DNA from: Escherichia phage Turkey3
Length of the DNA: 64,000 nucleotides
Reading direction: 5' to 3' (one strand)
Sequence record: PQ471515.1
Notes under the pieces: generated by a model
Told to the model about the DNA's origin: nothing
Seen by the model: only the letters and a program-made list of their open reading frames with translations
Databases searched by the model: none
Position numbers and translations under genes: made by a program
In this document: positions 39,890 through 60,192 of the stretch, one piece after another
How the letters are laid out: the number at the start of each line of letters is the position of its first letter
Position numbering within the stretch: the stretch's first letter is position 1

Positions 39890-41014
39890 TTAATTATCTA
39901 AGCCACCAATTACACTGAACTGTGTGGTAACGTCTGAACTATTATCTATGTAAGTTCTTCTACCAACATAATATAGTTGTCCTTTTGCTTGAATAAAAGT
40001 TACGGTCCCTGTATTAAATGATATAATATCATTGTATGTAATGTCAGGTGGTAGTGATGCTGATAACGCAGTAACTTTACTTAATGCAGCACTAGTACTA
40101 CCATTTATACCAGCAGCAATACTACCAGTACCATAGAACTTATTATCTTTACCAATGAATACGTTGGCTGATGCTTGTGTAGCTGATGTTATTGCCTTAC
40201 CAATTTGGAATGCGGTTCCTATGGTGTATGGTGTGCTCCTGGCAGCGTCTATGCTTTGTGTATATCCATCCCCTAGCTGACCATTAACTTTGTCACCACA
40301 TGAGTATAGAGTACCATTGAGGCTGTATATGATCCCACGGTTAGAGAAGCTAACAGCTTCTGCATTAGTCCATACTGGTGCGGTGTATGAGTTTACACGA
40401 CTAGCGGTCGTTCCTAGACCTAGTATACCATATGTGTTATCACCACATCCAAACCATTGTCCAGAACTGTTTTGATAGAACACTGAACGTTCTGTTGATT
40501 CCATGCGTACAGCATCCACAGCACCACTTTTAACGAACGAAGTTGATGAGGATGTAGTACCAGTACCCAATGCACCATAAGTGTTTGTACCAATCGCATA
40601 GATTGATCCTAGTGGTGTCATAACACGTATACAGTTATATCCCAATTGAACTTTACATTCAAATAGGTTGTCCCATATTTCAGGAACAGCAGAAAATAAA
40701 TTTGTAATTTCGAACCATGATGTTGTCGAACCAGTTAATCCTATACTGCTTTTGTTTCCTAAAATGAAAACAGTTTTGTCCTTCTTAATTATCCATGATG
40801 ATAGAAAGCCTATCTCACAGCTATGAACATTTGATTCGATTTGGGTAATATAATACTTAACGGTGTTATCACCCATAAATGCCGCAGCACCGGATGCAAA
40901 AAGGTTTCCAGTTTGTTTATTTAAAATGTAGTTATTGTTTCCATATACACTAACATCATAAGAACTTTCTTGTTTTTCGTTCCCATAATCAAATAACAAT
41001 ACGAAAGGTAACAT
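39890..41014 (-). CDS. MLPF-family protein, RCC1-like beta-propeller repeats
   Basis: N-terminus MLPFVLLFDYGN; motifs GCGDNTYGILGLGT, CGDKVNGQLGDGYT, GTNTYGALGTGTT. Confidence 0.8.
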   Translation of the reverse strand: MLPFVLLFDYGNEKQESSYDVSVYGNNNYILNKQTGNLFASGAAAFMGDNTVKYYITQIESNVHSCEIGFLSSWIIKKDKTVFILGNKSSIGLTGSTTSWFEITNLFSAVPEIWDNLFECKVQLGYNCIRVMTPLGSIYAIGTNTYGALGTGTTSSSTSFVKSGAVDAVRMESTERSVFYQNSSGQWFGCGDNTYGILGLGTTASRVNSYTAPVWTNAEAVSFSNRGIIYSLNGTLYSCGDKVNGQLGDGYTQSIDAARSTPYTIGTAFQIGKAITSATQASANVFIGKDNKFYGTGSIAAGINGSTSAALSKVTALSASLPPDITYNDIISFNTGTVTFIQAKGQLYYVGRRTYIDNSSDVTTQFSVIGGLDN

Positions 41015-41091
41015 GATAAAATCTCCTTGTGTTATACTTTATTTAATCATTTTATAATGTACAATTTTACAGCGATTTAATTGAGGTACTC

Positions 41092-41742
41092 ATGAATAAA
41101 AGAAGTAAGTTCTATCAAGAATATTTCACTAAACAGAAACGATTCACAAAAAAATACTTTACATCATCCCACCGACCAGTTGCAAGTTACAAACGTCCTA
41201 ATACTAACTATCTTACTGGTGGCAAGTTTAGTGCAAAGTTCGAATTACTTATGCGTGAAAAGAATATCAAGATGCATTACGCAGAGACGAGAAAAAACTC
41301 ATCAATTATTTGCTCTGATTTTCTTGAGTACGGTTGCTTAACTTATAAATTCAATGATGTATATTTGTATATTGATGTTGATTGTAACAGTACTCTTATG
41401 TTTGAGATTTCAATTCACCCAAATCACAACCGTTATATAAACATTAACTTGATTGATAAAGTACTGATTGGTATATCTAGTACTGATGGTGGTGGATTTG
41501 AATTTATTGCTTCAAAATATGATGAAGATTTCGTACTTTACCCAGTACTTGATGATGTGAAAGATATTCTCAATTCATTAAAAGGAAGTCAATACAAATT
41601 ATCTGAAGAACAGCTATTTCAGTACTCACTTATTCATGATGATATCGAGATATACTTAGAGTGTGCGAGAATATTGGAGTATCTTTATAATGAACTAACA
41701 ACAACTGGTAAAGTGACTGCATTCACATTATATAATATGTAA
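41092..41742 (+). CDS. hypothetical protein, FQY-motif paralog family
   Basis: 216 aa; EEQLFQYSLIHDDIEIYL; the only plus-strand gene inside the minus-strand array. Confidence 0.6.
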   Translation: MNKRSKFYQEYFTKQKRFTKKYFTSSHRPVASYKRPNTNYLTGGKFSAKFELLMREKNIKMHYAETRKNSSIICSDFLEYGCLTYKFNDVYLYIDVDCNSTLMFEISIHPNHNRYININLIDKVLIGISSTDGGGFEFIASKYDEDFVLYPVLDDVKDILNSLKGSQYKLSEEQLFQYSLIHDDIEIYLECARILEYLYNELTTTGKVTAFTLYNM

Positions 41743-41749
41743 AAGAAAA

Positions 41750-41768
41750 GCCAGTACATAGTACTGGC
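41750..41768. terminator. bidirectional terminator hairpin GCCAGTAC-ATA-GTACTGGC
   Basis: perfect 8-bp stem between convergent genes; the same stem recurs through the array. Confidence 0.7.
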
Positions 41769-57790: not shown

Positions 57791-57860
57791 ATTTCCCTCC
57801 TTTATTCATTATACTATATTTAATCAAAAATAAAAGCCAGTATCAAGTACTGGCATCGTA

Positions 57861-58970
57861 TTACTTGGGTAATGGAATTGTGGTCCATCTATTTGCGGCA
57901 ACGTCACCTGGTACATATGTAGGACTACCACTTACAGCAATAGTTTCATTACCATCATATACAACACTGAAGTTTGTGCACGTATACAACGCTGCGGCAT
58001 CTGGATTGTAATTTTCAAGTGTTAGTGTATTGGTGAACAAATTCAATGCAGTAGTTGAGCCGTTTTTACCATATGCACCTGTAGTATATATCTTTCCTTC
58101 TGTTGTTGAGTACATATTAACATATGACCCAGATGATGATTTAGCAATTTTATCTATCTTGCTATCTATTGTTTTAGAGTTAAATTGAAATGGATATACC
58201 TGTACGTTAGTATCTAAACCATTTCCCAGTTCCCCATTTAACTGCCACCCTGTGTGGTACATTCCCGCATTTGTATATGCAAGCGTACTATACGCATTAC
58301 CACCCATTATTTTAGTGCCAGATAATTTTAAACCAAACGATGTCCACTTACCAGTTTCATTTCCTATGGAACCATAAGCACTTGTACCACACGCACGAAG
58401 CTCGCCATTTGACGTTAGAAGCACTGTATTATTAACGTTACCAAATATATCAATAACCTGATTAGTGCCATTATTCAGTACTGAAGTAAAAGTACTCTGT
58501 GAGTAAGTACTACCTGAACCAACAGAACCATTTGTGTTCATACCTCTTCCATATACAATTTTACCATCAGCACTAACATAGTGCATTGAATCAAAACCAA
58601 TGGATATCATTTTAATATCAGATATATCTGGAAATGAAGAAGTTACATCTACTCCACCTAGTGGAATTGTATTATTTCCTAAACCTAATGAGACATTAGT
58701 TCCGTGCATTATAAATTTATCTTCTTTAAAATATAAAATATTATATCCACCAGCCCATGCATTATTAACGCCATTTGTAATCAGTACCCATTTATTTTGT
58801 GTAGTAGTTCCAGTAATATTTAACTGTTGATAGTTATTGATTCCACAACCATATAGCGATCCATCACCATATAGTACATATAAATTATCATATCCTGCAA
58901 TAACTTTCTTTATTTTTTTGGGTACAGGTGCTACATTCCCATACTTTAACATTCTTCCAAAAGGTAACAT
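57861..58970 (-). CDS. MLPF-family protein, beta-propeller-like (close paralog of 48715-49824)
   Basis: MLPFGRMLKYGN...DNLYVLYGDGSLYGCG. Confidence 0.8.
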   Translation of the reverse strand: MLPFGRMLKYGNVAPVPKKIKKVIAGYDNLYVLYGDGSLYGCGINNYQQLNITGTTTQNKWVLITNGVNNAWAGGYNILYFKEDKFIMHGTNVSLGLGNNTIPLGGVDVTSSFPDISDIKMISIGFDSMHYVSADGKIVYGRGMNTNGSVGSGSTYSQSTFTSVLNNGTNQVIDIFGNVNNTVLLTSNGELRACGTSAYGSIGNETGKWTSFGLKLSGTKIMGGNAYSTLAYTNAGMYHTGWQLNGELGNGLDTNVQVYPFQFNSKTIDSKIDKIAKSSSGSYVNMYSTTEGKIYTTGAYGKNGSTTALNLFTNTLTLENYNPDAAALYTCTNFSVVYDGNETIAVSGSPTYVPGDVAANRWTTIPLPK

Positions 58971-59043
58971 TATTTTCTCCTTTATTCATTATACTATATT
59001 TAATACAAAAAGAAATGCCAGTACACAGTACTGGCATATTAAT

Positions 59044-60192
59044 TCATTGTATAAATGACATATCTACTTCTGTATAATTAAGAACGTTCTGTCCAGAAAT
59101 ACCACCCATTACTACTATTGCAAGGCCACAATAATATAATTTTCCAGTATCCGTAAGTATAAGTGATCCAGATGGACTGCGTACCAAATCACACGAACTA
59201 TTAAAAGAAGTATAAGAAGGAGTATAGGAGTACTGATTATTATTATTACCAACACCTAATTGCCCAAACCCATTCGTTCCAGAAGCATATAGAACTTCAT
59301 CTGCTTTGACAATATGTGATGCCATGTTACCAACACAAGTATATAGAGTATAAACTCCTGAACTCAATAATGTCGGAGTTTTATATTGTATATCTGTAGA
59401 TGTAGAAGTACCACCTGTACCAAATTCGTTCCCATATTGTGCACCGAACTGTTTACCACAAGCGTACAAATTATTATCCGATTTGATAAAAAATGTACTC
59501 TGATAACTTACATTAAAATCTATAACATCCGAAGAAATCATCGTCACCCCAGTAATAGAAGTTTGATTACCCGTGCCCAACTGATAGTAATAGTTAAAAC
59601 CACAACCCCATAAAGTATTATCTTCTTTTAGGTATATGTTACCAACTGCCTTTTTAACCGAAGTTATAGTATCTATCCTTTTGAATGTGTTAAAAGAATT
59701 AATGTTTGTACCATCACCAAATGATGATAGGTTCGAGTTATTGTTCGCTCCACAACAATACAATGTACCATCGTTTGTTATCAAATTTACCTTCATATCA
59801 TAAAAACTACTCATGTACTTTATATCAGAAACATTAATACCACCTGATGTTATCCACGTGGTACAGTCCGTCCACAAAGTTTTTCTATCAGTTACACCAG
59901 TGAATGCCTTCGTGTTACCAGTGATAAAAACTTTTCCAGTACCTTTCTCTTCATACAATTGACAATCACTACTGTTATCTTCCAATAGAACTCGTTTAAC
60001 ATTCTCCGCACAAAGAATAAATTTACTCGATGCTACACCTGTACCAGTACCCCAATTCGTCGCAGAAGATGCATACAACTTATCAGTATAAGTATCATGA
60101 AGATACATAGAATCACTGGAATATATTTTAAAACGCCCTTCTTTCTCAGGTATAATATTCCCATAATCAAACATTCTAACAAAAGGTAACAT
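59044..60192 (-). CDS. MLPF-family protein, beta-propeller-like
   Basis: ORF track to 60210 (MNKGGN is translated RBS); true start MLPFVRMFDYGN at 60192; YACGKQFGAQYGNEFGTGGT. Confidence 0.75.
   Translation of the reverse strand: MLPFVRMFDYGNIIPEKEGRFKIYSSDSMYLHDTYTDKLYASSATNWGTGTGVASSKFILCAENVKRVLLEDNSSDCQLYEEKGTGKVFITGNTKAFTGVTDRKTLWTDCTTWITSGGINVSDIKYMSSFYDMKVNLITNDGTLYCCGANNNSNLSSFGDGTNINSFNTFKRIDTITSVKKAVGNIYLKEDNTLWGCGFNYYYQLGTGNQTSITGVTMISSDVIDFNVSYQSTFFIKSDNNLYACGKQFGAQYGNEFGTGGTSTSTDIQYKTPTLLSSGVYTLYTCVGNMASHIVKADEVLYASGTNGFGQLGVGNNNNQYSYTPSYTSFNSSCDLVRSPSGSLILTDTGKLYYCGLAIVVMGGISGQNVLNYTEVDMSFIQ

Follow-up and report, generated by a model that had tools for sequence, protein, structure and literature searches.

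Arrays of paralogous genes annotated as RCC1-like 'DNA condensation proteins' have been described in the Asteriusvirus phages 121Q (121Q_234-248), PBECO4 and phAPEC6 (gp549-gp010) (PMC7247149, PMC5259590). Eleven RCC1-like proteins were reported for phage phAPEC6 and were speculated to order the packaged DNA (PMC7247149), and the study of phage CBB described gp001 of phage GAP32 as a virion protein resembling RCC1, for which 121Q and PBECO4 encode multiple homologs (PMC5259590). This literature noted the multiplicity of the genes and saw several members in virions; the proteins were treated as RCC1/DNA-condensation homologs, without a shared peptide or a link to Kelch, LamG and glycine-rich virion proteins. 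The present analysis concerns a stretch of 64,000 nucleotides (nt) of Escherichia phage Turkey3 (PQ471515.1), referred to below as the window, which comes from an Asteriusvirus-like jumbo E. coli myovirus of the group of 121Q, PBECO4, phAPEC6, CMSTMSU and fEgEco12. At 39890-60192, on the minus strand, it contains an array of 17 genes of 245-449 codons, belonging to the same family and occupying the same genomic slot as the Asteriusvirus arrays and GAP32 gp001; the products share a 12-residue N-terminal peptide (the tag) placed in front of dissimilar bodies. The array differs from the other Asteriusvirus arrays in its 17 members and in two Kelch bodies present in no other phage record. In the preferred reading, to which a probability of roughly 0.6 is given, these genes encode late-expressed accessory virion proteins, loaded onto the particle by the tag as a docking peptide and serving as auxiliary adhesins, with the boxes at the 5' ends of the genes aiding the exchange of bodies.

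A second set of described systems comprises the docking peptides of secondary receptor-binding proteins in the KP32/KP34/K11, K1E/K1-5/SP6, Menlow and ΦK64-1/RaK2 groups (PMC6872550, PMC13352976). The conserved peptide, which can be only seven residues long, attaches the protein to a docking domain of the virion, several receptor-binding proteins can be present per phage, and the interaction between the peptide and the branching domain has been validated experimentally (PMC13352976). The array resembles these systems in having a short lineage-specific N-terminal peptide on unrelated, horizontally exchangeable bodies; it differs in that the docking-peptide proteins are trimeric tailspikes or depolymerases seated on T4gp10-like branching domains or adapters, whereas the array encodes small single-domain propellers and lectin-like proteins with no recognisable enzymatic domain, up to 17 per tag. 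By analogy, the best-supported suggestion is that the array works like these 'conserved peptide' secondary receptor-binding proteins; it is compared with their family rather than assigned to it. The first-pass annotation of the window had taken the family to be unlike anything described, a view that did not survive comparison with the literature: the gene arrays themselves are already known, being annotated and published in the Asteriusvirus relatives, GAP32 gp1 and eight phAPEC6 members had been reported as virion proteins, and short lineage-specific docking peptides on exchangeable receptor-binding proteins are established. The tag itself appears to be new, likewise its joining of four unrelated folds; no description of the shared N-terminus or of an 'MLPF' start was found in the literature.

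All 17 products (g1 to g17, Table 1) begin with M-L-P-F-[V/A/G]-[R/L]-[M/L]-x-x-[Y/F]-G-N, and a six-frame scan of the window with the pattern [LI]PFxx[MLIV]xx[YF][GA][ND] gave exactly 17 matches, all at these N-termini, which confirms the minus-strand array with a shared start proposed earlier. The genes had been called consecutive and assigned the motif MLPF[AVG]R[ML]xxYGN; their number and the motif stand, with the corrections that a plus-strand open reading frame (ORF) at 41092-41742 breaks the run between g1 and g2, and that g1 (MLPFVLLFDYGN) has L at position 6 and g6 has F at position 10 of MLPFxRΦxxYGN (Φ, hydrophobic residue). The starts of g5 (46623), g11 (52886) and g17 (60192) are internal to longer mechanical ORF calls and were corrected; each of the 17 starts is preceded, at a distance of 5-9 nt, by a GGAG-type ribosome-binding site, in agreement with the earlier opinion that they are not mis-called. 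The tag is nearly invariant across the members, in contrast to the strongly diverged bodies; without the tag, the RCC1-like bodies share 22-34% pairwise identity (61% for g8 and g16), and the bodies of g6, g9 and g10 show no detectable similarity to any other array member. Synonymous variation is present in the array tags (TAT 9, TAC 7; GGG 11, GGA 6). The stretch behind the tag, residues 13-20, contains 15% proline, compared with 2.7% elsewhere.

Profile searches bore out the three classes of bodies suggested earlier and distinguished 14 RCC1-like propellers, two Kelch propellers and one glycine-rich domain similar to a fibre tip. Pfam searches revealed RCC1-like matches in 13 members and Kelch matches in g9 and g10. 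The models PF00415 and/or PF13540 exceeded their gathering scores in g1, g7, g8, g11, g12 and g14-g17; the remaining RCC1-like members scored under the Pfam cut-offs and matched phrog_4219 with E-values of 1e-18 to 1e-83, including g5 (E 5e-18), which had no Pfam match. The whole-domain model PF25390 never reached its 150-bit cut-off in the array members. Among the Kelch proteins, g10 scored 59.1 bits with PF24681 (cut-off 50), 52.6 with PF24981 (50) and 44.9 with Kelch_6 (25.3), and g9 scored 24.6 with Kelch_2 (cut-off 21.3), its other Kelch matches lying under the cut-offs. The glycine-rich body of g6 corresponds to phrog_4474, and its homologs carry PF21722. No depolymerase or β-helix domain was found in the array bodies. 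The proteins had also been described as rich in Ser, Thr, Gly and Asn and nearly free of charge, and the composition agrees with this: S+T+G+N amount to 40% and D+E+K+R to 12.7%, compared with 22.6% and 22.8 ± 7.1%, respectively, in 57 other ORFs of the window; the isoelectric points (pI) of the array proteins are 5-9.

AlphaFold 2 (AF2) models were made for two members, g6 and g7. The model of g7, the alignment for which was drawn mostly from the paralogs in the window, is a seven-bladed RCC1-like propeller with a predicted template modelling (pTM) score of 0.85; a Foldseek search returned UVR8 as the best match (E 9e-23, template modelling (TM) score 0.77), and also RPGR, HERC2 and RCC1, in line with the propeller folds anticipated in the first-pass annotation. 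Residues 1-13 of this model precede the confident body, have predicted local distance difference test (pLDDT) values below 50 and contain no secondary structure; in the model of g6 (pLDDT 92), residues 1-10 have a mean pLDDT of 49 and are likewise devoid of secondary structure. Both models thus present the tag as a predicted free N-terminal extension ahead of the proline-rich stretch. A role of the tag as the 'Velcro' strand that closes the propeller was rejected, since AF2 leaves the tag unstructured and non-propeller folds carry it too. The top fold match of g6 in the PDB is the tail fibre protein gp24 of cyanophage Pam3 (7ypx_A; E 1.5e-3, probability 0.95, TM only 0.27), followed by the tail tip of Bxb1 and the glycine-rich domain of ALK. 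Pam3 gp24, like the S16/T2-type gp38, is a glycine-rich fibre-tip adhesin, and contains an N-terminal docking part together with TNF-like and glycine-rich receptor-recognition domains; it docks, however, by an α-helical bundle of ~30+ residues, whereas the array would use a 12-residue peptide. Judging from the predicted folds, the array bodies would be generic binding scaffolds, of which only g6 weakly resembles a receptor-binding domain of a fibre. Several RCC1-like members, e.g., g7 (47503-47560) and g4 (44085-44140), contain a semi-conserved C-terminal strand [LV]PGY[TS]xxQxx[YF]xxΦ, which is probably the last strand of the propeller; the same strand is found in RCC1-like proteins of phages W70 and XbC2, which have different N-terminal tags.

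The database search for the MLPFxRMxxYGN start that had been called for found it in GAP32, CBB, the Xanthomonas phage XbC2 and RaK2-like contigs of IMG/VR. In GAP32, the RCC1-like GAP32_001 begins with MLPFSRIIQYGN, and GAP32_002, an unrelated 'virion structural protein' of 211 amino acids (aa), begins with MLPFARIFRYGD. Phage XbC2 possesses eight consecutive genes starting with MLPFP..., six of which run on to QYGN, with RCC1-like, Kelch-like, LamG and other bodies. Eleven genes are tagged in CBB; nine of them form a syntenic cluster (CBB_536, 537, 548-554) with LamG, Kelch and other bodies, and two, CBB_144, with a glycine-rich body like that of g6, and CBB_247, are dispersed. The tagged genes of CBB and GAP32 are without the upstream cassette of the Turkey3 array. 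Because their codons vary freely (TTA/CTT, CCA/CCT/CCG, TAC/TAT, GGA/GGT/GGG) and their 5' DNA is unrelated, conservation applies to the peptide and not to its nucleotide sequence, and this comparison of sequences indicates selection on the tag at the protein level. Across genera, M1, L2, P3, F4, Y10, G/A11 and N/D12 are constant in the members seen, most members have R6 together with a hydrophobic position 7 (position 6 of several XbC2 and CBB tags is Q, I or P), and positions 5, 8 and 9 are variable, with E, Q, K, D, S, A and R observed at position 9.

In a scan of IMG/VR with a degenerate DNA pattern, the tag motif occurred almost only on RaK2-like contigs of 348-378 kb, with bodies of 168-676 residues. 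Matches on contigs of 4-72 kb, a charged 352-aa protein starting with MLPFTPLDGYGN and ORFs of 39 aa, were set aside as probably due to chance or unrelated; a charged 352-aa protein starting with MLPFTPLDGYGNMRGK fits the DNA pattern as well, but it is encoded on smaller IMG/VR contigs (20-72 kb), differs greatly in composition and is probably unrelated to the jumbo-phage tag. Uncultivated metagenomic virus genomes of 355-371 kb contain tagged proteins of 667-676 aa with RCC1-like beginnings, about twice the usual size, perhaps as a result of propeller doubling or fusion. In a protein closely homologous to g6 (206 aa, on a metagenomic contig of 26.7 kb), exactly the 12-residue tag is absent; this product starts with MNKGGN, which is read from the ribosome-binding region, and continues with KIEYKP..., so that this is either a natural deletion of the tag or an assembly artefact.

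In Vequintavirinae and other phages, homologs of the RCC1-like, LamG-like and glycine-rich bodies follow a different short N-terminus, M-Φ-E-Φ-Φ. Phage W70 (Vequintavirinae) has three RCC1-like genes in tandem whose products start with MLEM[LM]NLG, and gp182 of phage 4MG, a LamG-like 'virion structural protein', starts with MEEMLLVGGG and resembles CBB_553 only from approximately residue 22. Among 120 homologs of the g6 body, four start with MLPF/MIPF and ~34 with M-Φ-E-Φ-Φ, PVP-SE1 gp19 being one of the latter; this type of glycine-rich body also recurs behind the N-termini MKRFPGN.., MSFGxPVRNG.. and MI[KR]xKLLT... Body-independent N-termini that are particular to a lineage are the pattern expected if the N-terminus fits a lineage-specific socket and the bodies are exchangeable. 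The second tag, which can be written as M-[LI]-E-[LMAT]-[LM]..G, was seen on bodies of the RCC1-like, the LamG-like and the glycine-rich kind, both in Vequintavirinae and in unclassified phage contigs of 150-290 kb.

Virion proteomes of the relatives clearly indicate an association of the tag with the particle. Mass spectrometry (MS) of CBB virions detected 55 of 554 ORFs, including nine of the eleven tagged proteins (hypergeometric P = 2.4e-8). All six structural proteins present in CBB but not in GAP32, a close relative of CBB (CBB_144, 247, 536, 537, 551, 552) are tagged; these are the proteins that the CBB authors picked out when seeking components of the tail 'hairs'. The virion proteome of phAPEC6 includes gp003, 005, 006, 007, 009, 010, 549 and 551; all members of the phAPEC6 array are tagged, eight were detected in virions (P ~1e-5 to 6e-5), and all eight 'DNA condensation'-type proteins of this proteome carry the tag. 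GAP32 gp1 and gp2 are also both tagged and virion proteins. The tag, therefore, predicts virion incorporation in the relatives. With this enrichment, the core of the earlier idea of a shared anchoring or targeting peptide on diversified binding domains holds; its variants of a packaging signal, a secretion tag and an effector arsenal are disfavoured. The CBB peptide table lists LFEYANVIIPPNYK (CBB_536, residues 7-20), LLQYGNK (CBB_553, residues 7-13) and YANVIVEYATK (CBB_548, residues 10-20), each of which follows a tryptic R or K and reaches tag residues 7-12 or 10-12. Since tryptic peptides cover residues of the tag, the tag is present in mature CBB particles, and its retention argues against a cleaved propeptide such as the capsid-targeting sequence of phage T4.

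In T4, a capsid-targeting sequence of ~10 residues stands at the N-termini of IPI-III and Alt, otherwise unrelated and hypervariable proteins, and likewise sets their incorporation; it is removed by the prohead protease, and the cargo is internal and ejected. It is fairly unlikely that the tag is a sequence of this kind, directing the proteins into the prohead core for packaging with the DNA and ejection into the host, where they would form a variable set of anti-defence or takeover factors. The head morphogenesis genes of T4 type in these phages, the listing of a prohead core scaffold/protease in the phAPEC6 proteome, the low abundance of the tagged proteins in virions and the inner body of phAPEC6, for which its authors suggested RCC1-like proteins, would all suit such an arrangement. 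The fully tryptic peptides with tag residues 7-12 from mature CBB virions do not suit it, nor does the variable position 9, with which no conserved LxE-type cleavage site is found in the tags; moreover, the cargo looks like surface binding domains, one body resembles the receptor-binding domain of a tail fibre, and rigid, low-charge β-propellers and jelly rolls of 30-45 kDa would differ from internal proteins that associate with DNA and would not readily pass through a tail tube.

The signals between the genes point to late expression. Eleven spacers of ~70 nt contain the hairpin GCCAGTACnnnGTACTGGC and a T-run, then TAAATA, and then the GGAG ribosome-binding site; terminator-like sites in the array number 22 (8 ± 3 expected), and TAAATA is located at -31 to -36 from the ATG in 12 of the 17 genes (chance ~0.009 per gene). 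An ATAAATA element upstream of structural genes of CBB and GAP32 was likened to the T4 late promoter by the CBB authors, and the TAAATA of the array resembles it, which by analogy suggests late expression. Host-type sigma-70 promoters were rejected in favour of this late-type motif, since their number in the array (80 sites, 99 ± 10 expected) shows no enrichment. The other five genes begin 9-15 nt past the preceding member, have no cassette, keep the tag and are probably co-transcribed with the upstream member, as g2, whose start is 15 nt past g3, probably is with g3.

Six copies of the 27-nt promoter/ribosome-binding core of the cassette are identical, with no more than three mismatches in eight, and codons 2, 3, 6 and 11 of the tag are over-uniform relative to the codon usage of the bodies; this over-uniformity indicates homogenisation of the 5' box at the DNA level within the array. 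One might, consequently, suppose that the shared N-terminus has no role in the protein and merely hitchhikes with an expression cassette homogenised by gene conversion among tandem paralogs, a supposition with which the mosaic tag variants between orthologs, pointing to recombination within the box, would also agree. It is very unlikely to account for the tag, because the five members without the cassette still have the peptide, because CBB, GAP32 and XbC2 keep it with other codons and other upstream DNA, even in dispersed single genes, because its variation falls mainly on positions 5, 8 and 9 with core residues constant across genera, and because the tag predicts virion incorporation.

A further possibility is that the proteins act inside the cell, as decoys or inhibitors of host defence or regulatory proteins, with the peptide serving as a signal for degradation, localisation or chaperone recognition and the presence in virions being incidental. 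Propellers and Kelch domains are classic scaffolds for protein-protein interaction, hypervariable arrays are typical of counter-defence loci, and MS coverage of the tagged proteins is low; nevertheless, the strong virion enrichment in two independently analysed phages, the late-type promoters, a composition characteristic of extracellular or fibre-tip proteins and the annotation of homologous bodies as virion structural proteins in Vequintavirinae too make an intracellular function unlikely.

A comparison with related genomes indicated that the array is the variable part of the window. Phages fEgEco12 and CMSTMSU match 81-83% of the flanking 25 kb with 98-99% identity; for the array, coverage in any phage is only 13-38%. 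Ten of the 17 bodies have orthologs of 94-99% identity in fEgEco12, arranged in a changed order (e.g., g1 corresponds to g580 with 99% identity), seven, including g3, g4 and g15, have none, and fEgEco12 has five others. Nothing corresponding to the bodies of g9 and g10 was found among 50,697 phage records; a tblastn search with g10 gave no match, and the blastn matches of g9-g10 to other phages are confined to the tag and cassette segments. Orthologous bodies may carry different tags: g8 has VRMFDYGN and its phAPEC6 ortholog gp009, detected in virions, has ARMVKYGN; g16 has GRMLKYGN and its fEgEco12 ortholog the hybrid tag VRMVKYGN; the phAPEC6 ortholog of g17, gp549, carries ARMIKYGN and was detected in virions. 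The idea that V-, A- and G-type tags specify different docking sites is unsupported, given these different and hybrid variants on orthologous bodies of sister phages. The conserved 5' boxes may provide the homology for recombination that shuffles the bodies.

GenBank names of the homologs include 'regulator of chromosome condensation', 'putative DNA condensation protein', 'X-linked retinitis pigmentosa GTPase regulator' and 'HERC1'. Taken literally, the labels of DNA condensation proteins and chromosome condensation regulators would mean that these RCC1-type proteins organise the packaged or replicating genome, and the RCC1 repeats recognised by Pfam and PHROG and the finding of the proteins in virions that contain an inner body might be cited in favour. 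This function is highly improbable: the name was transferred from eukaryotic RCC1 to a generic propeller with UVR8 as the best match, the proteins are almost uncharged (12.7% D+E+K+R, pI 5-9), Kelch, LamG and glycine-rich proteins share the same tag and genomic slot, and the gene set varies between phages that are ~98% identical, which a core function in genome packing would not tolerate. The low charge, these isoelectric points and the varying gene content also speak indirectly against the chromatin or DNA association or Ran-GEF activity on which the label is based.

The preferred reading of accessory virion proteins can be put as follows. In each protein, the docking peptide of 12 residues (M-L-P-F-x-R-Φ-x-x-Y-G-N) would be joined by a short tether rich in proline to a single compact, β-rich binding domain. 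The retained peptide would insert the protein at a receptor site of the particle that all members share, and one virion would show a mixture of different binding modules, most likely auxiliary adhesins by which the adhesion of the particle is broadened or adjusted. The near-identical 5' boxes, composed of the terminator, the late promoter, the ribosome-binding site and the 36-nt tag-coding sequence, would supply homology for recombination and make the array a hot spot for the gain, loss and rearrangement of bodies and for changes of their tags. The low charge, the richness in Ser, Thr, Gly and Asn and the LamG and Kelch bodies among tagged relatives suggest, by analogy, an exterior location and a binding character; the bodies may bind host or environmental ligands, with a role in adhesion or host range.

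Several observations weigh against this reading. Receptor-binding proteins known to use a docking peptide form trimeric spikes or fibres, and propellers are usually monomers. The placing of the proteins on the particle exterior is an argument from composition and fold analogies only, the fold match of g6 to Pam3 gp24 is marginal (E 1.5e-3, TM 0.27), and a profile search with the g6 family revealed no match among PDB sequences. The virion MS data are those of the relatives CBB, phAPEC6 and GAP32; detection was low, with 1-8 unique peptides, so that loosely associated proteins are possible, and CBB 550 and 554 and several tagged members of phAPEC6 went undetected in virions. It is by inference that the tag, rather than the body, is taken to mediate incorporation. 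Finally, the codons at positions 2, 3, 6 and 11 are far more uniform than the body codon usage predicts, with TTA, for example, in 17 of 17 genes (P = 4e-7), and the conservation of the tag within the array is partly homogenisation at the DNA level.

A bolder form of the docking-peptide reading, possible but held only tentatively, is that MLPFxRΦxxYGN is a portable peptide sufficient to load proteins onto the virion in RaK2-like jumbo phages, that a common multi-copy receptor site permits the combinatorial display of up to 17 lectin-like modules, that the array is a cassette-exchange system, and that parallel tags, such as the M-Φ-E-Φ-Φ of Vequintavirinae, operate in other large myoviruses; the multi-copy site would perhaps be the anchors of the capsid hexamers or the rings or tips of the tail 'hairs'. 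Described structures of phAPEC6 include an anchoring protein at the centres of capsid hexamers and rings of hairs on the sheath, and the hexamer anchors, the sheath hair rings (phAPEC6), the hair tips and the baseplate are candidate locations of the tagged proteins. The Hoc-type decoration adhesins of the T4 capsid are comparable in being non-essential, with variable surface binding domains thought to aid weak adherence to host-associated surfaces; unlike the array proteins, for which the capsid is only a candidate location, Hoc is a single protein attached by its C-terminal domain, not a family with an N-terminal peptide.

If the proteins are tag-loaded virion components, the label 'DNA/chromosome condensation protein' is misleading on dozens of genes per genome in jumbo coliphages that are therapeutic candidates, and accessory virion protein would be the alternative. 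The 12-residue motif alone selects the lineage-specific virion proteins of CBB, which are candidates for its unexplained 'hairs', and the tag unites RCC1, Kelch, LamG and glycine-rich proteins as one putative functional class. Were the tag sufficient for loading, it could serve as a simple means to display foreign domains on phage particles of very large size and to re-program adsorption, and the homology boxes offer a possible explanation of why this locus is the main difference between near-identical phages.

Table 1. Genes and intergenic elements of the tagged array of Escherichia phage Turkey3 (positions in the window).
Feature	Position	Strand	Description
g1	39890..41014	-	374 aa, tag MLPFVLLFDYGN + RCC1-like propeller
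g2	41775..42911	-	378 aa, tag MLPFARMVKYGN + RCC1-like body
g3	42927..44072	-	381 aa, tag MLPFVRMFDYGN + RCC1-like body
g4	44085..45203	-	372 aa, tag MLPFARMVKYGN + RCC1-like body
g5	45274..46623	-	449 aa, tag MLPFARMIKYGN + divergent RCC1-like body
g6	46695..47432	-	245 aa, tag MLPFARMVKFGN + glycine-rich domain related to PF21722 proteins
g7	47503..48636	-	377 aa, tag MLPFARMVKYGN + seven-bladed RCC1-like propeller (predicted)
g8	48715..49824	-	369 aa, tag MLPFVRMFDYGN + RCC1-like body
g9	49834..50724	-	296 aa, tag MLPFGRMLSYGN + Kelch-like propeller
g10	50798..51745	-	315 aa, tag MLPFVRMFDYGN + Kelch propeller
g11	51756..52886	-	376 aa, tag MLPFVRMFDYGN + RCC1-like body
g12	52962..54143	-	393 aa, tag MLPFVRLFDYGN + RCC1-like body
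g13	54217..55338	-	373 aa, tag MLPFVRLFDYGN + RCC1-like body
g14	55348..56541	-	397 aa, tag MLPFARMVKYGN + RCC1-like body
g15	56612..57790	-	392 aa, tag MLPFVRMFDYGN + RCC1-like body
g16	57861..58970	-	369 aa, tag MLPFGRMLKYGN + RCC1-like body
g17	59044..60192	-	382 aa, tag MLPFVRMFDYGN + RCC1-like body
Interrupting ORF	41092..41742	+	216 aa, phrog_34359
Intergenic cassette 5' of g4	45204..45273	-	hairpin GCCAGTACnnnGTACTGGC + T-run, TAAATA at -32, ribosome-binding site
Further such spacer	46624-46694		
Further such spacer	47433-47502		
Further such spacer	48637-48714		
Further such spacer	50725-50797		
Further such spacer	52887-52961		
Further such spacer	54144-54216		
Further such spacer	56542-56611		
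Further such spacer	57791-57860		
Further such spacer	58971-59043		
Promoter/ribosome-binding core 5' of g17	60193-60265		

The ORF that interrupts the array occupies the same position in fEgEco12 (g581); PHROG and Pfam searches with it and with the neighbouring genes gave no functional lead and no link to the tagged genes. This ORF and a second plus-strand ORF at 62295-62954 (phrog_29152) encode proteins of ~217 aa each with basic N-termini and a weak C-terminal likeness (29% over 55 aa, E 0.004). Directly adjoining the tagged array, the plus-strand region 37414-39853 contains seven tandem paralogs of 104-123 aa that look like multi-pass membrane proteins; their PHROG matches are of no known function or 'membrane protein' (moron category), and the succession of small membrane-protein paralogs and a minus-strand MLPF cluster is also found in CBB (CBB_543-547, then 548-554) and fEgEco12 (g573-579). 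On the other side, the plus-strand region 60295-64000 comprises ~15 tandem small paralogous ORFs of 59-82 aa with a common pattern ...EYY...L... near the N-terminus and ...Y..VL.LI... in the C-terminal part; this array of small ORFs extends over more than 20 kb in fEgEco12 (g596 onward). The conserved flank contains at 32446-33744 (+) a gene for an HNH endonuclease of 432 aa (phrog_559/681, E ~1e-78), and the content of HNH and homing endonucleases in the flank around it differs among related phages.

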